Virus record (IMG/VR): IMGVR_UViG_3300045988_175328
Location: 1-64,000 of that record
Origin: a virus
Strand: one strand, 5' to 3'
DNA length: 64,000 bases
Shown: positions 1,534 through 51,622 of the stretch, piece by piece
Layout: each line of letters begins with the position of its first letter
How positions within the stretch are numbered: the first letter of the stretch is position 1
Notes under the pieces: generated by a model
Databases searched by the model: none
Told to the model about the DNA's origin: nothing
Seen by the model: the letters and a program-made list of their open reading frames with translations, nothing else
Program-made: the position numbers and the translations under genes

Positions 1534-2082
1534 ATGATATATGATAAAAATGGTAACAAGATTACGATTCTAGATAAGATGTTCGAAGAGCGAACATTAT
1601 TTATTATCGGCTCTATTACTGATGAAACAGCTAACTATATCGTTCCATCATTATTATTATTTGCAAAACAAAGTAATGATCCTATTAAGTTGTTTATCAA
1701 CAGTCCTGGCGGCGAAATCAATGCTGGTCTTGCTATTTGTAATACAATGGATTTAATTAAAGCACCTATTCATACTTATGGTTATGGAATGTGTGCTAGT
1801 ATGGCAAGCTTTCTTCTTGCTAAAGGAGAGAAAGGTCATCGACATATCTTACAAGATACTGTCGTTATGATTCATCAGCCGTTAGGCGGAGCTCAAGGTC
1901 AGCAAACAGAGATCGAGATTGCTTACCAGCGAATTACGTCGCTTCGCGAACGTCTCGAGAAAGAATATGCTGAGATTACAGGTAAAACTGTCAAAGAGAT
2001 TCATAAAGCATGTGATCGTGACAATTATTTAGTCGGCGAAGATGCTGTTAAGTTTGGTCTTGTCGATACAGTATTAAAATAA
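1534..2082 (+). CDS. clpP: ATP-dependent Clp protease proteolytic subunit ClpP
   Basis: 182 aa. INSPGGEINAGLAI, catalytic Ser context GMCASMASFLL, His context VMIHQPLGG, Asp context CDRDNYL. Confidence 0.9.
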   Translation: MIYDKNGNKITILDKMFEERTLFIIGSITDETANYIVPSLLLFAKQSNDPIKLFINSPGGEINAGLAICNTMDLIKAPIHTYGYGMCASMASFLLAKGEKGHRHILQDTVVMIHQPLGGAQGQQTEIEIAYQRITSLRERLEKEYAEITGKTVKEIHKACDRDNYLVGEDAVKFGLVDTVLK

Positions 2083-2091
2083 GGGGCTTAA

Positions 2092-3120
2092 ATGAAAGAA
2101 AATTTAGAAGACTTACTCGGAGCTATATTTGAGAGCGTTGAAGAATCTGGAATTGAAGCTCCGAAAAAAGAAACGAAACCAAAGAAATCTAAAAAGCTTT
2201 GGATGCCTAAAGATATTAAAACATATCTTGATAAATCTGTTGTTAGTCAAGATTTAGCGAAGAAGCTTCTGTCGGTTGGTGTATGTAACCATGAACGAAT
2301 GCTTCAATTTAATGAATCTCGACAAGAAGATGATCCGATTATCGAGAAAGCAAATATCTTAATGGTTGGAACGACTGGTAGCGGTAAAAGTTTCTTACTT
2401 AAAGAGATCGCTAAAATTCTTGATAAACCAATCGTTATCGTATCTGCATCTGGATTAACTAAAACTGGCTATGTTGGTGAAGACGCAACTTCTATCGTTA
2501 ATCGATTATATGAAGTGGCTGGTCGAGACAAAGAACGTGCAGAACAAGGTATTATTTTTATCGATGAGTTCGATAAAATTTCGGCACAAAAGAATAGCAA
2601 TGGTTATCAAGGACAAGATATTGGCGGCCGCGATGTTCAATATGAATTATTAAAAATCATTGAAGGCACACAAGTACCAATTAAATCTAGTTTCGATATG
2701 CTAACGCCTATGGGTATTCAACCAGCCGAGATGATTGATACAAAAAATATTTTATTTATTTGCGGCGGAGCCTTTACTGGTATCGAGAAAAAAATCGAAA
2801 GTCGTATCCGCGGCACTAATGATATGATTTCCTTTAAACAATCGACAAATCTTGTCGAAGAAAAAGAAATCTATTCATATAATAATGTGATTGAACATAT
2901 TTCGACCGATGATTTTAAAGAATTTGGTATTATACCAGAACTTCTTGGTCGATTACCGATTATTTGTCCGTTACGTAATTTAACGATCGAAGATTTAAAA
3001 GATATTCTAACAAAACCTCAACATGCAACCATGAAACAAATTGAAAAATTGGCGTCGATGTACAATGTTAAGTTAGAATATGAAGACGAGTCAATTGAAT
3101 TAATTGCTAAGATAGCTTAT
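2092..3120 (+). CDS. clpX: ClpX-like AAA+ unfoldase, exon 1 (no zinc-binding N-domain)
   Basis: Walker A GTTGSGKS, Walker B IIFIDEFDKI, ELLGRLP motif. The frame hits TGA at 3121, just where ClpX proteins continue into the ...TGARGLRS sensor-2 region. That region is found at 4912 onward. Confidence 0.85.
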
Positions 3121-3611
3121 TGAAATGTCAAAATAATACTTACGATTTTAATCGCGAGATTTATTTTGGCAAACTAGTAAGGATGTTGGGAAACTAGCAT
3201 CTAGTGGCGGATTAAATCCGTCCAACGAAGACACTGAATTGCTGGAAACTCCTAAAGCTCAGAGTGCCAAGCCCCATAAAGGGTTAGGCTACGAAAGTAG
3301 AAACAAACTTTGAGATGGTATATGGTTAAATCCTAAGTACTCTAACAATGGACAATCAGCAGCGAAGCCGGTAGAACTATTTACTAGTACCGGAACGTTC
3401 AACGACTATTCCTCGTGAGGGAAGTACACTACAAGTAATTGGTAGTGGAAGTGGTGTCGCCTAAGTAGTATAGATTTATACTATATGGATAAGATATAGT
3501 CTGTGCCTTGGTGAAAGTCAAGGGTGCGGGTAGTGCCGCCGGTTAGAAAGTAGCGTTTCTAACTGAACGATCATCCTCTCGAATCGTCTTAAACGGTTCT
3601 ATATACTATAC
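3121..3611 (+). ncRNA. group I intron ribozyme core (5' part of the clpX element)
   Basis: P-like AATTGCTGGAAACT 3237-3250, Q-like CAATCAGCAGCG 3353-3364, R-like GTTCAACGACTAT 3397-3409, S-like AAGATATAGTC 3491-3501. These resemble the classical Tetrahymena and phage group I consensus elements. Confidence 0.8.
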
Positions 3612-3770
3612 AAAAACAGCCTACTTTGCTATAATAGTTTTATAAAAACTATTTAGGAAAGGAGGTTTGTCTCAATGATAAGAGCTATTAAACTAAGAGC
3701 TTATTTTACAAAGCATCAAGAAGAGCTAGTTGATAAAAATTTCAACTGTGTATGATTTATCTTTAACTAT

Positions 3771-4766
3771 ATGCTAGATTTAAAATCTAAGCTCTATAAA
3801 AGAACTGGTAAAAATCTTAGTTATAACGAAGCTTGTGCTATTTTAACTAAGCTTAAGTCTAGAAGACCTTGGCTAAAAGAAGATGATGCAGTTGCATTGC
3901 AACAAGTTATCAGAGATTTATTCAGTTCTTATGAAAGATTTTTTAATGGGGCTGGATACCCTAAGTTTAAAAGCTCTCGAGACAAACAATCCTATCGTAC
4001 TAATGTATATTCTTTAGATATTGAGAATAGTACAATTAAAATTCCTAAAGTAGGAGTTGTGAAATTTCGTGACAAATACAAATTTGAAGGTTTAATTCGA
4101 GTTCGAAATGTCACGATTTCAAGATCTAAATCTGGTAAATATTTTGCATCAGTCTGTATCGAAGTAGAAACCACACCTCTTGCGAAAACCAAGAAGAGTT
4201 GTGGTATCGATCTCGGGATAAAAGATTTATGCATATTATCAGATGGAACTAAGTTTGAGAATCCTAGATTTAGAACTTTGCCAGCTGCTAAACGTAGATT
4301 AAGATTTTTGCACAAAGCTTTGTCGCGTAAGGAGAAAGGATCTAAAAGCTGGGAAAGAGCTAGAATCAGACTCGCTAGAGAGTATGAACGTCTAGCTAAC
4401 ATACACTTAGATTATCTTCACAAGCTGACTACTTGGATCATTCAGAATTATGATTTTATATCAGTTGAAACCTTAAAGGTTAAGAACATGCTGAAGAATC
4501 GTAAATTAGCAAGAGCTATTAGCGATGCTGGTTGGTTTGAACTAGTTCGACAATTAGAGTATAAAGCAAATTGGTATGGCAAGCAGTTTGTTAAGATAAG
4601 TACATTTTACGCTTCTAGTCAAATCTGCTCTAGCTGTGGAGATAGAAATTCAGCCGTGAAAAAACTTTCTATTCGCGAATGGGAATGTCCTAGTTGCGGA
4701 GCTTATCATGATCGTGATTTGAACGCAGCGATTAACATTCTGAACGAAGGATTAAAACAAATATAA
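3771..4766 (+). CDS. tnpB: TnpB-like RNA-guided endonuclease (RuvC + zinc ribbon); N-terminus disturbed by an in-frame TGA
   Basis: Ruv[11 protein letters not shown], Ruv[14 protein letters not shown], zinc ribbon CSSCG...CPSCG, Ruv[16 protein letters not shown] stronger start (ATG 3675 behind AAAGGAGG) encodes MIRAIKLRAYFTKHQEELVDKNFNCV in the same frame, but is cut off by TGA at 3753-3755. Confidence 0.85.
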
Positions 4767-4911
4767 ATTTTGTACAGTATATAGAACCGCAGGACATGCG
4801 GGGATAGCCCATGGTATCTGATTTGTCAATGGAAATTGAAACTATGAAGGAGTAAATTCTAAACAATCTTGAATGGGAACCTCGTCACTTATTAGTGAGG
4901 GAGGATGTCAG
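4767..4911 (+). ncRNA. candidate TnpB omega RNA scaffold / right end; also the 3' terminal part of the intron
   Basis: Non-coding tail after tnpB with hairpins CCGCA-GGACA-TGCGG and CCTCgTCACT-TATT-AGTGAgGAGG, ending exactly at the 3' splice site. The 5' limit is uncertain and may lie inside the tnpB 3' end, as in known TnpB omega RNAs. Confidence 0.45.
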
Positions 4912-5082
4912 AATAGGGGTACCGGTGCTCGTGGATTACGAAGTATTGTAAGCTCTATTTTTGACCGAAAAGTCTTCGATATTAATAGCAGAACTAAAGT
5001 CGTTAAAATCACGAAACAGGATATTTTAGAATTATATGCGAAACAATTGGAGGACAGAGACAATGAAACAACAATCATTTGA
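4912..5082 (+). CDS. clpX: ClpX-like unfoldase, exon 2 (sensor-2 / C-terminal helices)
   Basis: NRGTGARGLRSIVSSIFDRKVFDI matches the conserved ClpX TGARGLRSI region. The frame is open only from 4873 and has no independent RBS. Confidence 0.8.
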   Translation, partial: NRGTGARGLRSIVSSIFDRKVFDINSRTKVVKITKQDILELYAKQLEDRDNETTII

Positions 5083-5869
5083 GTTAATCCACCGATATCT
5101 TAATCAATTAGAATCAGCTGAAACTATTACGCCAGAAGATATTGGCGCTATTTCAACGATTCTAGCAATTGAAAAAGAATACGGTGAGTTAACTGAATCT
5201 AAACCAAAACGGAAAACGAAAAAGAAAACTGAAACCGTAAAAGAAGTTGTCGAAGAAATTAAGGAAGAGCTTCCGAAAGAAGAAGAGAAAACTCAAGAAG
5301 TTCCTCAAGAAGAAATAACTCTAGAAGAAGTAAAAGAAGAGACTTCTGTTCAAGGACCAGAATCTATCGATACTCCTACTGAAGTTGAAGAATCTAAGGT
5401 TGAAGAGGTTCCGGCTGAAGAACCTACGAATTTCGATAACTTAACGAAAGATCCAGAAGAAACATTAACTCGTTTTAATGAAGATTATTTTGTTTCTAAA
5501 TACAAAAAAAATACGAAACGAGAAGATTTAACCGACGAGGAATTTGAAGAAGTTAAATTCTTAGCCGAAACCTTAAAACGTTATGCGAGCGAAGGCTCAG
5601 ATAACGTTAAAGAAATCAAGCAAGCTTTCGAAGAAATCCTCGAAGATGAAGATAAAGGTAAAGTAACTTTAAAAGAGATTACTCCATACTATCTTGAACA
5701 TCTTGTTAAGTACATTACAGTTAAGCAAAGTCTTAATAAATTTAAAGAAGAAGACATTGTTGCCACTTTAAAAGATATTTCTGGCGGCATGTTAAATTCT
5801 ATTACTGACCTTAATAGATATAATATTGAGGCAGTATCTAATATCTTAGAAGGAACTCTTAAAAATTAA
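5063..5869 (+). CDS. hypothetical acidic (Glu-rich) protein
   Basis: ORF with TTGGAGGA RBS before ATG 5063 (the track start 5036 is less likely). Long E/K/T-rich low-complexity centre. Confidence 0.6.
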   Translation: MKQQSFELIHRYLNQLESAETITPEDIGAISTILAIEKEYGELTESKPKRKTKKKTETVKEVVEEIKEELPKEEEKTQEVPQEEITLEEVKEETSVQGPESIDTPTEVEESKVEEVPAEEPTNFDNLTKDPEETLTRFNEDYFVSKYKKNTKREDLTDEEFEEVKFLAETLKRYASEGSDNVKEIKQAFEEILEDEDKGKVTLKEITPYYLEHLVKYITVKQSLNKFKEEDIVATLKDISGGMLNSITDLNRYNIEAVSNILEGTLKN

Positions 5870-9148: not shown

Positions 9149-9456
9149 TGACTGATGAAGAAATTATGCAAAGTTTAGTTTCATATATCGGAATGCTATC
9201 TTTACAATCTAAAGATACGCCGACGAATTTAAATAAAAGAATTATTGCAAATTTTATGTCTGTAATTCTTAATTTACTTGAAGCCGAAGGCGTTAATAAA
9301 GAAGAAGCTATCAAACCTTTGTATCCAGTAATCGTAAACTATTTAATCGAAAAGAATAATGTATTCAAAGAAGCTTCTGGTAAAGATAGTGAAACGTATA
9401 TCAATGCAATTAAGCTATTAAAGTCATTGGCAAAGAAAGAAGGTACGAATGGCTAG
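9148..9456 (+). CDS. hypothetical protein
   Basis: 102-aa ORF with an ATG overlapping the previous stop. Confidence 0.5.
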   Translation: MTDEEIMQSLVSYIGMLSLQSKDTPTNLNKRIIANFMSVILNLLEAEGVNKEEAIKPLYPVIVNYLIEKNNVFKEASGKDSETYINAIKLLKSLAKKEGTNG

Positions 9457-9709
9457 GAAGAAAGCTGTTGTTGTCGAAGAAGTATCGCATACGCTAACCG
9501 ACGAAGAAAAACGCAAACGAATCGATACGATTGCTTCGACAATCATGCAAAAGTCAAATATCGTCATCGGGCGATTAAGTGACGAAAAAGTCAAAGAAAA
9601 ACTTAAGATTGAATTCATCCCGACTCCGTCCGTTAATTTTAATGCAGCAACTGGAGGAGGGTTTCCAAAAGGAAAGATGACAATCTTATCAGGAACAGAA
9701 GATTCGGGT
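9449..9709 (+). CDS. recA: RecA-like recombinase, exon 1 (ends inside Walker A)
   Basis: ...GGGFPKGKMTILSGTEDSG then the frame dies. Joining to 9978 restores GTEDSGKTSL (Walker A GxxxxGKT). Confidence 0.8.
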
Positions 9710-9977
9710 AAGGTATTAAATTGCCCCTATAACTAGTAATAGTTAATAGAAAACTCTGTGATATGCTGGGAAACCGTCTAGGCAATCAGCAGGCAGCGTA
9801 CGTTTAATGTATTGCGCCCCAACGACTATCGAACACAGAATCTAATAAATGTTTTAGAGGATAAGTTAGTAGAGTACATTCGTTACGAATGGAAGCGCAG
9901 AGCATCTCATAACAAGGCTTGAGATGATGATATAGTCTAGTCCCCTAATAAATATCGGGAAACCGAGGGTGTTAACG
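9710..9977 (+). ncRNA. group I intron (ORF-less), recA intron 1
   Basis: Exon ends GGGU and pairs with GCCC at 9723-9726 (P1). P 9763-9775 ATGCTGGGAAACC, Q 9783-9793 CAATCAGCAGG, R 9817-9830 CCCCAACGACTATC, S 9929-9937 GATATAGTC. Last base is G (9977). Confidence 0.8.
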
Positions 9978-10288
9978 AAAACTTCATTAGTTCTTGAAAC
10001 AATTGGTAAATTGCATCGTGAAAATCCAGAAGGACATTTTGCCTTATGGATTGAAAGCGAAGCATCATTATCATTAGATTATTTAATTAACACATTCGGA
10101 ATTGATCCAGAGCGATTCTACTATATTCAGTACGATCGTGAACATGCAGCTGAAGATTGTTTAAATCAAGCCGAGGCTATTATTAATTCTGGTGTTATCG
10201 ATATCTTCTGTATTAATACTTTAAAAGCTCTTGTGCCTAAAAGCGAGATCCTTAAAAGTATGGAAGATGTTAGCGTGGCCTCCGGGTT
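9978..10288 (+). CDS. recA: RecA-like recombinase, exon 2 (3' limit uncertain, 10288-10304)
   Basis: KTSLVLETIGKL...ALWIESEASL...VIDIFCINTLKALVPKSEILKSMEDVSVASG is collinear with RecA GKTTLAL...IDAEHALD...[24 protein letters not shown]. Confidence 0.75.
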
Positions 10289-10656
10289 TTGGAAGGCATA
10301 TTGCGGTGACGCAGTGTGAAAACTTAGTAAATTGCTGGAATATCTTAATAATTTGTTAGCTACAACAGAATCTGTAAAGATAAATGTGAATGCAGTCGAA
10401 AGACAGAAAAAATAACAAATTTGTTGCAAGCTGAAAAAAAGCTTTTTTTAAAGTGCTAAACAACATTAACAATAGACAATCAGCAGCGAAGCCGACAAAG
10501 ATTTGTTGTCGGAACGTTCAGAGACTATCCTATAGCCACACGCTAAAATATAAATATGGCAACAGGAGTAGGGCCACTATGTGGTTGGTGAGATCCCATT
10601 AAATCGAAAAACTAAGCATCTTTTTTAAGATGATGATATAGTCCAAATCAGGCTTG
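10289..10656 (+). ncRNA. group I intron (ORF-less), recA intron 2 (boundaries +/- ~10 nt)
   Basis: P 10329-10341 AAATTGCTGGAAT, Q 10477-10488 CAATCAGCAGCG, R 10516-10530 GTTCAGAGACTATCC, S 10635-10644 GATATAGTCC. In-frame stops on both sides. Confidence 0.75.
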
Positions 10657-11266
10657 ATATTGCCAAGCCCGTCTTAATGCGACTTTTTGCCGGAAGTTCA
10701 TTCCATTAATCGATGAATTTAAAACAGCAATGATCTGCATCCAACATATGACAACCAATATTGGTTCTTTCAGTATGTATGGAGATAATTTAACATTAGC
10801 CGGTGGCAAAGCTATCCGAACAGCAGTAATGCTATGGGTAGACTTACGCAAAGGCTCGATTCTCGATACCGATCCAATTAAACGAGAAGAGGGTATTAAA
10901 GTAAACTGTACTGTACGGAAGAATCACTGTATTCCAGCTGAATTCCCATATCGTAAGTTTAGCTATTATGCCGTTTTCGGTCAAGGTATCGAACAAATTT
11001 TAAGTACTCTCGATGAGCTAGTAACTCAAGGAGTAATTAATAAAGCCGGTGCATGGCTTCAAGAAATTGATTACGAGACTGGTGAGATTCTCGACAAATG
11101 GAATGGTAAGAATGCCTTTCGTCAAGATATGCTAGATCATCCTGAAAAATTAAAACGATATATTGGTTTAATTCAAGGAACCTTTACTCAATTAACTAGC
11201 GAAGAAGTCGCTAAGTTAAAAGAAGAAGAGGCAAAAGGTGTAGAAGATGAACTCGAAGAAGAATAA
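10657..11266 (+). CDS. recA: RecA-like recombinase, exon 3
   Basis: (Y)CQARLNATFCRKF...ICIQHMTTNIGSFSMYGDNLTLAGGKAIRTAVMLWVDLRK is collinear with RecA LQARLMSQALRKL...IFINQ...[24 protein letters not shown]. Confidence 0.8.
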
Positions 11267-12496: not shown

Positions 12497-12947
12497 ACAA
12501 AAAATCCTAGAAATATTGGATCATGCTGATGGAGAGCATCCTTGGATTTTTCCAGGTTGTCATATTTTACATATTCAATCGTATGCAAAAATGCTAAGCT
12601 ATAAGCACCCTTCATACAAAAGCTTAGAGCTCTTAGCATCTGAACTTCAACGGATAAATTCTAATCATATGGAATTTCTTTTCGATTTAGAACTAGAGTT
12701 AAATAGTTTTAGAGAAAAAGAATTAACTGCAAAAGAAGTTGAAGAAAATCTAATGCGAGTTCATTGGTTTAATTTAATTTCTAAACATGAAGAAATCATT
12801 AAAGATCATATTGAAAAATTAACCCCAGAGCATTTCTTTTATGATTCCCTCTCTGAGGGATTAGAATATATTCATCAATATCGATCTATCATGGGAAGAA
12901 TTTATAAGTATATTAATGAACAGTTAAAAGAAATTGAGGAAGGATAA
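12471..12947 (+). CDS. hypothetical protein
   Basis: 158-aa ORF. Confidence 0.5.
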   Translation: MKLMKKLSKQKILEILDHADGEHPWIFPGCHILHIQSYAKMLSYKHPSYKSLELLASELQRINSNHMEFLFDLELELNSFREKELTAKEVEENLMRVHWFNLISKHEEIIKDHIEKLTPEHFFYDSLSEGLEYIHQYRSIMGRIYKYINEQLKEIEEG

Positions 12948-49453: not shown

Positions 49454-50575
49454 ATGAATTACAATAATATAACTCCAGAAATGGTTATGTCTATGGATTT
49501 ACAAGAGCTCGTAAAACTTGATTACGCTAAGCTTCCTGAAAAGTCAAAGCTTGCGGTAATTAAAAAAGACCCAGTTATGTGGGCTAAAGCTTTTATTTCT
49601 TCTTATTCAATTGAGCAAGAAGAATATGTTCCATGGACAGCCAGATGGTATCAAGCTGAAATGCTTAGAGATAGGAGTTTACGTAAAGTATATCGATGTG
49701 GTCGTCGGTGTATTGCCGGCGATACATTAATATATGATCCTGAAACTAATAGCTCTATTTCAGCTAAAGAATTGTTCGATACCCGACAGGATGATTTCTT
49801 TACAGTGGCTTGCTTGGATCATGATTTCAAAACAGAGCAGATGCCTCTAGCTAAAATATATGAAAATGGTGTAAAACAAGTATATACAATAACGACAGAA
49901 TACGATAAACAAATTACTGTTACAGAAAATCATCCATTCTTAACACAAGTAGGATGGAAAGAATTAAAACATCTTCGTGTTGGAAATTTAATTGCAGTCA
50001 TTCAAGACGAAGGTATTTTATCAAAGTATGTCGATATCGACAAACAAACAATTGAATTAATACAAAAAGAATTAAATAAAGAAGTAAGTATCGAAAGTTA
50101 TTCAGATCTAATGCTTTATGCAGAAGAGGCTGGACTTGAAACAGTTTACGATATTCTTGATGGCGATTTGGCATGGGAACGAATTAAATCAATTCGATTA
50201 CGTGGCACAGAAATGACATATGATGTGTCCGTACCAGAATATCATAATTTTATTGCGAATGGATTTATCACTCACAATACTGGTAAAACAGAAACAATGG
50301 TTATCGAAGCATTGTACAATTGTTTCACTCGAGATAACTTTGTTCATATGTTTGTAACGCCATACGAAAACCAAGTTCGATTAATTTTCGATAATTTAAA
50401 ATCTAAGATCGATTCCTCGCCAAGGATTCGAACAGCACTCACTCGGTCGACACGGTCGCCGTACGTGATGGAATTTAACAATAAATCAAAAATTGTTGGA
50501 TTTACAACGGGCGCAAGTTCTGGTAGTAGTGCTGCCTCTATCCGCGGATGGCGTAGTGACTGGATCTCACTCGAT
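49454..50575 (+). CDS. terL: terminase large subunit, exon 1 (contains the intein)
   Basis: After intein removal, YRCGRR|TGKTE gives Walker A GRRTGKT. Ends in the Walker B strand IRGWRSDWISLD. Confidence 0.85.
49709..50278 (+). mobile_element. mini-intein (190 aa) inserted in the TerL P-loop
   Basis: Starts CIAGDTLI (block A), TENH (block B-like TxxH), ends FITHN followed by +1 Thr. Too short for a LAGLIDADG or HNH endonuclease domain. Confidence 0.85.
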
Positions 50576-51250
50576 TAAATAATACTATTGTAATAGTTTA
50601 AATAGTCCATTTATTTGGTAACAAGTAAATGTTGAGTTAAATCTCAAGAGTCTATCTAATTGCTGGGAACCCCTAAAGCTTAAAGTGCCTTTGGGCTGCG
50701 AAAGCAGAAATAAATCTTTAAGATGATATATGGTTAAATCCTAAGTATTGTAAACAATGGGCAATCAGCAGCCAAGTTAGTATTATAATTAATATTAAAA
50801 GGTTCAACGACTATCCTGAGAAGGAGTACTATGTAAGCGCATAGGAAATGGTAGAAATCCTACAAAGGATTAAGATATAGTCTATGCTTTATCGAAAGAT
50901 AAAGGTGCGAGTAATGTCGCCGGCTAGAATTAGCGAATCTAGTTGAATTAATATCAGGAAATGGATAATTAAATAATAGTTCATTTAAAACGCCGTTAAA
51001 CAACGAAACTCCTAAGAAGGACAACGATGTACCAAGCTCATTAGTTAATAATGAGTAGTGTTCAACGACTAGGGATGAAATAAGCTCCCCACGAAAGCGG
51101 TGAAACCTACTACAGTCTTATCGTCAAGTTTTATTCTGTAGTACGGAAGACATAGTCTAAACTGGACCAGAACTGACTGGTCGATGAAAATGAAGGTAAC
51201 TTCCAGAGCGCAAGATAAAGAGCTTGCGGTTAATAACAAATTGTATCTAG
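50576..51250 (+). ncRNA. group I intron, terL intron A (boundaries +/- 3 nt), with a second degenerate core in its 3' half
   Basis: P 50658-50670, Q 50761-50773, R 50802-50816, S 50872-50882. The core aligns closely with the clpX intron. A second R-like GTTCAACGACTAG lies at 51060-51072 and a second S-like AAGACATAGTC at 51147-51157. Confidence 0.75.
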
Positions 51251-51379
51251 GTGAAGGTGATTTCGACACAGTATATGCTCTTTGTATGGAACGTGCTAGT
51301 ATCGGAATGACATGTTCATCGACACCAACCGGTAGACGATCTAAGTTTTATGACATTTGTACTCAGAAGAGCCTCGGGT
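51251..51379 (+). CDS. terL: terminase large subunit, exon 2
   Basis: (E)GDFDTVYALCMERASIGMTCSSTPTGRRSKFYDICTQKSLG is collinear with the T4 gp17 region ...ISSGRRSKIIITTTPNGLNHFYDIW. Confidence 0.75.
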
Positions 51380-51622
51380 TAAAAATGGCCCCAATATTAA
51401 GCAATTAATGATTGAAAACCTTTTGAAATGCTGGGACTTCCTTTAAGGAAAATCAGCAGCGAAGCTTCTTAAATTTAAGAAGAACGTTCAACGACTATCC
51501 CATTTGGGAGTAGGGTCAAGCGACTCGAAGCAGAAGGCGTCCTATTGGGACGAAGATATAGTCTGAGCTACATAGAGATATGTAGAAGGTTGCAAGTAGC
51601 GAATGCAATCGTAACAATACTG
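51380..51622 (+). ncRNA. group I intron (ORF-less), terL intron B
   Basis: Exon ends CGGGU and pairs with GCCC at 51388-51391. P 51425-51436, Q 51448-51460, R 51485-51499, S 51553-51563. Last base is G (51622). The splice gives KSLG-F-KEHY, cf. T4 GKSGFEPY. Confidence 0.8.

Follow-up and report, generated by a model that had tools for sequence, protein, structure and literature searches.

Positions 3121–4911 of a 64,000-nucleotide (nt) stretch of phage DNA (positions 1 to 64,000 of IMG/VR virus record IMGVR_UViG_3300045988_175328; hereafter the window) are very probably a non-autonomous IStron of group A (CdISt1 type). It lies in sense orientation in a clpX gene, its splicing would restore ClpX, and this copy is most likely passively carried. 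In IStrons, a single sequence combines the selfish functions of splicing, transposition and RNA-guided cutting. They have been known since 2000–2004 (CdISt1), mostly from clostridial and Bacillus chromosomes. The window represents 64 kb out of a ~227-kb phage genome. Within it we found the features of a group A IStron, namely a 5′ group I ribozyme, a same-strand tnpB downstream, a T-rich target, a TCAG end, and intron and transposon ends that coincide (Table 1). A sequence-only reading of the window had recognized the CdISt1-type order of ribozyme, tnpB and structured 3′ end, and our analysis bears it out, with CTTAT before the element and TCAG at its end.

Table 1. Features of the clpX locus and of the IStron inserted in it
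Feature	Position	Strand	Remarks
ClpP gene	1534–2082		immediately precedes clpX
clpX exon 1	2092–3120	+	343 codons, AAA+ ATPase module; Pfam AAA_2/AAA; collinear with P0121 residues 1–343
Last 5 nt of exon 1, CTTAT	3116–3120	+	transposon target, presumed TnpB target-adjacent motif (TAM), exon strand of P1
Whole IStron	3121–4911	+	1791 nt; intron boundaries are the transposon boundaries; terminus ...GTCAG
Distal P1 extension	3127–3170	+	stem 3127–3134/3163–3170 around the left-end hairpin
Left-end subterminal hairpin	3139–3158	+	18 nt inside the left end
Group I ribozyme core	3139–3523	+	P2–P9, with putative P7.1/P7.2; Rfam RF00028, model positions 1–253
Internal guide sequence GUAAG	3177–3181	+	pairs with exon CUUAU, G·U at the splice site
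Conserved extra hairpins after P9 (P9.1-like)	3524–3570	+	helix 21: 2/5 pairs compensatory; near-invariant in copies
Promoter-like site TATACA-17-TATAAT with TG (TATACA-17-TGcTATAAT)	3607–3635	+	upstream of tnpB; top score of the region, 10/12
Shine-Dalgarno AGGAGG	3660–3665	+	ahead of tnpB ATG 3675
tnpB	3675–4766	+	363 codons; in-frame TGA 3753–3755 (codon 27); longest open piece 3771–4766 (331 amino acids)
3′ untranslated tail	4767–4911	+	putative guide-RNA (omega RNA) scaffold; stem-loop 4787–4801, right-end hairpin ~4881–4901, then AGGATGTCAG
First 16 nt of exon 2 (AATAGGGGTACCGGTG)	4912–4927	+	sequence a TnpB guide would carry, by inference from the IS200/IS605 mechanism
clpX exon 2	4912–5082	+	56 codons plus stop; matches P0121 residues 344–399

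The interrupted clpX gene and its uninterrupted alleles

A clpX-like AAA+ open reading frame (ORF) at 2092–3123 is closed by an intron-borne TGA at 3121–3123, and a short downstream frame, starting at 4912, reads NRGTGARGLRS. Joining position 3120 to 4912 is in frame and gives a protein of 399 amino acids (aa) with the junction ...IAKIAY/NRGTGARGLRS (slashes mark junctions and insertion points throughout). The last base of exon 1 is U3120 and the last base of the insert is G4911. The window DNA reads ...GCTTAT, then the 1791 nt, then AATAGGGG..., and the spliced RNA is predicted to read ...GCUUAU/AAUAGGGG. The ClpB_D2-small Pfam domain matches across the junction in the spliced protein (residues 297–363), with no such match in the 343-aa ORF of exon 1. 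The insert boundaries and the terminal U and G agree to the base with those proposed by the sequence-only reading.

Using the spliced ClpX for a protein search, we found an uninterrupted ClpX (P0121) of 399 aa with 97% identity, encoded on contigs as long as 223,884 bp. Its sequence, ...ELIAKIAYNRGTGARGLRSIV..., is identical to the predicted junction and to the peptide that the sequence-only reading had expected to be restored. Its DNA is ...GCATAT/AATAGAGG..., and its loci L061–L063 and L066–L068 read ...IAKIAYNRGTGARGLRS... at this site. Since natural uninterrupted alleles match the predicted junction, clpX is one gene and not two. The sequence-only reading had suggested a comparison with related phages, in which clpX might turn out to be intron-less or two separate genes; the uninterrupted alleles provide the former and exclude the latter. 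In the clpX cluster at 90% identity, 25 of the 26 sequence variants are 396–399 aa long and uninterrupted, and the sole shortened variant is the window's 343-aa exon-1 product, present on six contigs. An IMG/VR scan gave only more distant ClpX relatives (29–45% identical), none of which is broken at the junction if its match extends that far; in viral ClpX genes of 36–45% identity the reading frame continues through this position. In phages clpX is an accessory gene and not the essential-type gene of the sequence-only reading.

The ratio of nonsynonymous to synonymous substitution rates (dN/dS) against four uninterrupted alleles is 0.013–0.026 overall (0.007–0.022 in exon 1 and 0.05–0.17 in exon 2), and both exons are under strong purifying selection. 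All four intron-less alleles read as DNA have A at −3 and at +6, where the occupied allele has T and G, respectively. The −3 position falls both in the presumed target-adjacent motif and in P1, and +6 falls in the presumed guide target. A degenerate pattern of the empty site had no matches in IMG/VR. Among GenBank phages, a near-identity DNA search of the region returned just one 56-nt match in clpP, and the ClpX protein search gave at most 44% identity, consistent with a phage without a cultured relative. As a side observation, the next ORF (5036–5869; 277 aa, acidic) begins within exon 2 with a 47-nt overlap, so that exon-2 sequence is constrained by two reading frames.

The group I ribozyme

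The sequence-only reading had placed a group I core in the 5′ part of the insert and proposed a covariance-model search for it. The Rfam Intron_gpI model matched end to end at 3139–3523, scoring 74.4 bits where the gathering score is 50. For the analysis of covariation, we aligned eight related copies on a structure with P1, P3–P9, the P7 pseudoknot and two helices between P7 and P3′. Standard pairs occupy 96.3% of the cells, and both sides have changed in 47 of the 116 pairs, in comparison with 23.5 ± 3.0 in shuffles (0/500 reach the observed number) and 5–12 pairs in control structures slid by 1–3 columns. Compensatory changes in the distal P1 extension affect 5/8 pairs of helix 2 and 3/8 pairs of helix 3. 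The two extra helices between P7 and P3′ (helices 17 and 18) are like P7.1/P7.2 of subgroup IA.

In the copy L052, the exon sequence UCUAU pairs with the guide GUAGG, a compensatory change, and in L069, a relative that targets TTGAT, the guide is GUCAG. Guide and exon motif co-vary both within and between families. The guide GUAAG pairs with a target motif that is constant and not specific to any gene, so the element should be able to splice out at every insertion site, a point also made in the IStron literature (PMC13565253). An exact 33-mer from the ribozyme core has one match in IMG/VR and one in JGI metagenomes, and none among the species genomes of bacteria and archaea searched (185,579), so that no host copy was identified. 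At L060 (~12575–12620) we observed a ribozyme copy without the left-end hairpin (~20 nt deleted) in which guide and core are kept; this copy may no longer be mobilisable.

Element ends, target motif and 3′ tail

Homology of the copies L052, L054 and L056 with the window element starts at 3121 and stops at 4911, where the 3′ end of the element reads ...GGATGTCAG/AAT. The structured tail described by the sequence-only reading as ending exactly at the 3′ splice site therefore ends where homology between copies ends. The 5′ flanks of related copies are CTTAT, TCTAT, CTTAC, TTTAT (four times) and GTTAT, and a TCAG terminus is present in every copy with its 3′ end read (L052, L054, L056, L061, L064, L068 and L069). 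The hairpins at the two ends are alike, sharing the consensus CTCGTGAC-TTTA-GTCATGAG with compensatory changes, and are set 18 nt (left) and 10 nt (right) inside the element. This geometry is similar to that of IS608, in which the spacing is 19 and 10 nt. Of the hallmarks of an autonomous IS200/IS605 element, the window element thus has similar subterminal hairpins at both ends and lacks a detected Y1 TnpA. For group A, the literature gives TTGAT, ATTAT and TTTAT as targets (PMC4227781, PMC13565253), and the CTTAT of the window is one base away from these motifs.

The tail that follows tnpB (145 nt) hardly varies among copies and is homologous to that of the Clostridioides phage element L069. 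Across five sequences, compensatory changes occur in 12 of the 59 pairs predicted, among them pairs of the stem at 4787–4801 and of the right-end hairpin. The putative guide-RNA scaffold may start within the 3′ end of tnpB. No guide-RNA family of Rfam matched over the tail, even at a permissive threshold. The best Rfam match of the tail is Ref70 ('Enterococcus sRNA 70') at 4781–4897, with 20.7 bits against a gathering score of 115, and the Ref70 family might itself be derived from an IS605 right end or guide RNA.

tnpB and the search for a transposase

The tnpB product carries the Pfam domains HTH_OrfB_IS605 (residues 1–46), OrfB_IS605 and Cas12f1-like_TNB, and matches the ISDra2 TnpB structures 8bf8/8exa/8h1j with E = 3e-87 over 357 residues. 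D179, E265 and D348 and the two CxxC pairs of the zinc ribbon are all in place. The RuvC D/E/D and zinc-ribbon motifs noticed by the sequence-only reading are therefore present, while the gene itself is not intact: codon 27 is TGA in the window and AGA (Arg) in five sister copies. The complete ORF of a TnpB/OMEGA system is accordingly missing from the window copy, and the sister copies are intact. The shortened 331-aa ORF occurs in five separate assemblies, of which four are identical to the window over 2900–5100 (2.2 kb) and the fifth is 99.7% identical. Because the same allele appears in five separate assemblies, we regard it as a real nonsense allele and not as a sequencing error. An alternative genetic code for this TGA was ruled out, as relatives carry AGA and TGA ends 4 of 38 long ORFs. 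With a nonsense codon at position 27, the window TnpB is probably inactive. The family as a whole is under selection, given a dN/dS of 0.08–0.15 among tnpB copies.

Upstream of tnpB, the −10 element of the promoter-like site and the Shine-Dalgarno sequence are kept in four copies, making this a candidate promoter. Transcripts from this site would be without the ribozyme and would therefore, as a speculation, keep the guide. The nearest TnpB in GenBank phage records is ~46% identical to that of the window, and the closest such loci (Enterococcus iF6 and Bacillus SPG24) gave no group I match. A tblastn search with a validated IS608 TnpA query found no Y1 (HUH) TnpA at E ≤ 1 in the 64-kb window or the sister-copy loci. 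The space between ribozyme and tnpB is just ~150 nt, with no room for TnpA. The element contains no protein-only homing endonuclease (HNH, GIY-YIG or LAGLIDADG), tnpB being its sole ORF of more than 140 aa.

Related copies and mobility

The TnpB protein search yielded more than 100 clusters at 90% identity and, among those listed, more than half are on contigs of 200–235 kb. L052, L054 and L056 share 84–88% identity with the window element across the whole 1.79 kb and sit in other genes, and L064, of a second family, shares 67% and is in another gene as well. Because copies with the same exact ends are found in other genes, the IStron moves as one unit. All five sisters checked (L052, L054, L056, L061 and L064) are in sense orientation with an open frame across the joined flanks.

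Other relatives differ further in their cargo. The element of L061 (721–2606 of an ENA contig of 223,884 bp) is homologous in the ribozyme only, has a tnpB of 419 aa, splits clpP after TTTAT and ends in TCAG. The intact clpP of the window is the empty site for this element, and the clpX of the L061 phage is uninterrupted and 92% identical in DNA to that of the window. Occupied and empty sites are thus reciprocal between genomes with clpX 92–95% identical in DNA. The L068 element (~175–1945), an IStron of the same family, has a TnpB of 363 aa and termini that match the family, and lies within the start codon of clpP. Its insertion point is ...GAGGTATTTAT/G ATT TAC GAT, where a correct clpP ATG would arise solely after splicing. 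A further element, L069, comes from a GenBank phage (Clostridioides phage ES-S-0173-01); it is preceded by TTGAT, has TTCAG as its end, and shares left-end hairpin, ribozyme and tail homology with the window element. In total, at least three tnpB lineages are carried on related ribozymes, with insertions in clpX, clpP and several unnamed genes, and one related genome has two IStrons with TnpBs 84–92% identical. The related clade of 215–235-kb metagenomic phages is unusually rich in IStrons.

Proposed mechanism and alternative explanations

We propose that transcription would run through clpX and that the transcript would then splice itself at U3120 and G4911, restoring the 399-aa ClpX. An intact TnpB of the family would bind an RNA composed of the 3′ tail and ~16 nt of the downstream exon (by analogy, PMC10690162, PMC10055086), and this complex would cut intron-less alleles at a matching target next to a TTAT-like motif. 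By recombining with the occupied allele, the cut allele would then acquire the element, and jumps to new sites would need a Y1 TnpA in trans. The window copy itself is most likely passively carried and tolerated through splicing, provided that no related TnpB serves its RNA in trans. The differences at −3 and +6 fit two histories: the element may have entered a rare TTAT-bearing allele, or the common alleles may be refractory. The four sampled intron-less clpX alleles are predicted to escape cutting, with little homing into them, which is in line with the low frequency of the occupied allele and the decay of its tnpB. For the ~215–235-kb phage clade, it is possible, if doubtful, that TnpA-less IStrons spread as RNA-guided homing introns and that the −3/+6 differences are escape variants.

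Several points weigh against the assignment or parts of it. Self-splicing at 3120/4912 is what we infer, and no P10 pairing of the guide region with exon 2 is consistent across copies. Rfam, even at a permissive E-value, gave no group I ribozyme in L052, L059, L061 and L069. These four align well with the window ribozyme, and L059 holds the exact 33-mer of the core. As Rfam missed them, we used alignments and pair counts instead; Rfam-based intron counts in such phages are underestimates for the same reason. The compensatory pairs in the tail lend modest support to its role as a guide-RNA scaffold. The premature stop in tnpB means that the window copy alone cannot demonstrate homing. The TnpA search covered 64 kb of the 227-kb genome, elsewhere in which a TnpA or an intact TnpB of the family may be encoded.

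The window copy could instead be a still active RNA-guided homing element, with TnpB supplied by readthrough of the TGA, by a restart at Met34 or by a sister IStron in the same genome, and with the tail and exon 2 of this copy as its guide for invading intron-less clpX during co-infection. In keeping with this, the catalytic and zinc-ribbon residues are all intact, dN/dS of the window-lineage tnpB is as low as elsewhere (0.10–0.15), the tail is fully conserved, a promoter-like site is conserved downstream of the ribozyme, and a related genome does harbor two IStrons with similar TnpBs. However, the TGA is a normal stop in the window and precedes most of TnpB, and a restart at Met34 would leave out residues 1–33, a part of the HTH_OrfB_IS605 match. 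The interrupted allele is also just 1 of 26 sequence variants, and every intron-less allele read differs within the presumed motif and seed. We therefore consider continued activity unlikely, and passive carriage remains our preferred reading of this copy.

Two other explanations concern the element as such. If the insertion no longer splices, clpX would be a recently inactivated pseudogene; splicing is predicted from the sequence, clpX is dispensable in many phages, and the interrupted allele is rare. Yet the ribozyme scores 74 bits in comparison with 66–96 bits in relatives, all core pairs are kept by the window copy in the alignment, both exons are open with the low dN/dS given above, and the CUUAU/GUAAG pairing is intact, whereas the CAUAU of uninterrupted alleles would mispair at −3. 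This makes loss of splicing quite improbable. Least plausible of all is the chance insertion of an unrelated IS605-type element into a phage group I intron of the ordinary kind, giving nested independent elements. The same ribozyme lineage does occur with different tnpB cargoes (the 419-aa TnpB of L061, as well as L059 and L060) and, in the terminase gene of the window, without any ORF. But four copies in four genes share the whole 1.79 kb at 84–88% with the same first and last bases. Moreover, the left-end hairpin is located within P1 and the 3′ splice site coincides with the right end, so that excision of the 'insertion sequence' would take both splice sites with it.

Other introns and inteins

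The window contains further group I introns. Two without ORFs, at 9700–9959 and 10272–10666 (Rfam 60.5 and 55.5 bits), cut a RecA/UvsX-like gene in three (ORFs 9449–9736, 9969–10319 and 10730–11266). Two more, at 50605–50904 and 51370–51585 (86 and 91 bits), lie in an apparent terminase large-subunit gene. The former of these is preceded by ...CTCGAT, has 74–77% identity with parts of the IStron ribozyme, and in its 5′ region is closely like the L064-family IStron. Between the two, group I core-like motifs (GTTCAACGACTA ... AGACATAGTC) at ~51045–51165, with no open exon frame evident, may represent a third or degenerate intron missed by Rfam. The terminase-like ORF at 49454–50578 contains an apparent intein (...RCGRR/CIAGDTLIY ... 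FITHN/TGKTE) within a Walker-A-like motif, so that the terminase gene would bear an intein in addition to at least two introns. In related phages, an Intein_splicing Pfam match (L056/L057, 8265–9092) lies in a gene near another IStron, which fits a clade-wide load of selfish elements.

Implications

The IStron design, as seen here, is spreading through a clade of large uncultivated phages. For annotation, the locus shows that clpX is one gene and that what looks like a 'transposase' ORF is a tnpB with a nonsense mutation. Intron homing classically takes place when phages co-infect a cell, and for this reason the clade could be used to test whether TnpB alone drives intron homing, and to study target escape. 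If RNA-guided homing does occur in the clade, it would offer a natural system for the idea of 'intron homing by TnpB', which a 2026 review describes as still unvalidated (PMC13565253). The sequence-only reading had regarded an RNA-guided TnpB in a phage intron as a different homing logic. This is not new, as IStrons have been reported from C. botulinum phages (PMC4227781) and their TnpB-guided retention and homing has been demonstrated by experiment (PMC10690162). A survey in 2014 counted 294 IStron copies, two of them on C. botulinum phages (PMC4227781), and work of 2023–24 demonstrated that TnpB guides the retention of IStrons and that splicing and guide RNA are in conflict in them (PMC10690162). 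The window locus thus adds to already published IStrons, including phage-borne ones. Less expected are the density and diversity of IStrons in one clade of large phages, the target-site differences in empty alleles, and a copy with tnpB alone disrupted, a state hitherto unobserved according to the 2026 review (PMC13565253).

Comparison with known systems

The closest known systems are CdISt1 and other group A IStrons of Clostridioides difficile, Enterococcus and Fusobacterium (PMC4227781, PMC10690162). As in these, the order in the window is ribozyme, tnpB and structured right end, the target is a T-rich pentanucleotide with T as its last base, TCAG closes the 3′ end, and the splice sites are the transposon ends. 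TnpA is absent in all eight copies of C. difficile 630 (PMC10690162), as it is from the window element. In contrast to known group A members, the window element resides on a ~227-kb uncultivated phage, has a YTTAT target and the guide GUAAG (GUCAG in L069), and carries a nonsense-mutated tnpB. CbISt3 and CbISt4, of C. botulinum phages c-st and D-1873, are also IStrons on phage genomes and belong to group B, of IS607 type (PMC4227781). In the experimentally studied CboIStron, TnpB and guide RNA share their 3′ end with the intron (PMC10690162), as they would in the window element. Group B IStrons rely on a serine TnpA, are inserted behind GG, terminate in CGG and form a G-C pair at the 5′ splice site, whereas the window element has group A termini and IS200/IS605-type hairpins.

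In comparison with ISDra2 and IS608, the window TnpB aligns end to end with ISDra2 TnpB and has the D/E/D triad, the subterminal hairpins are 18 and 10 nt from the ends, and the guide would likewise be read from the right-end flank. The window element differs from them by having no TnpA and by a left end enlarged by the ~450-nt ribozyme. Classical phage introns (T4 td/nrdB/sunY, SPO1 and Twort) encode HNH, GIY-YIG or LAGLIDADG enzymes, while the window element is without a protein-only homing endonuclease. Unlike those introns, it carries its cargo 3′ of a complete ribozyme instead of in a peripheral loop, and its family is found in many unrelated genes instead of at one cognate site.

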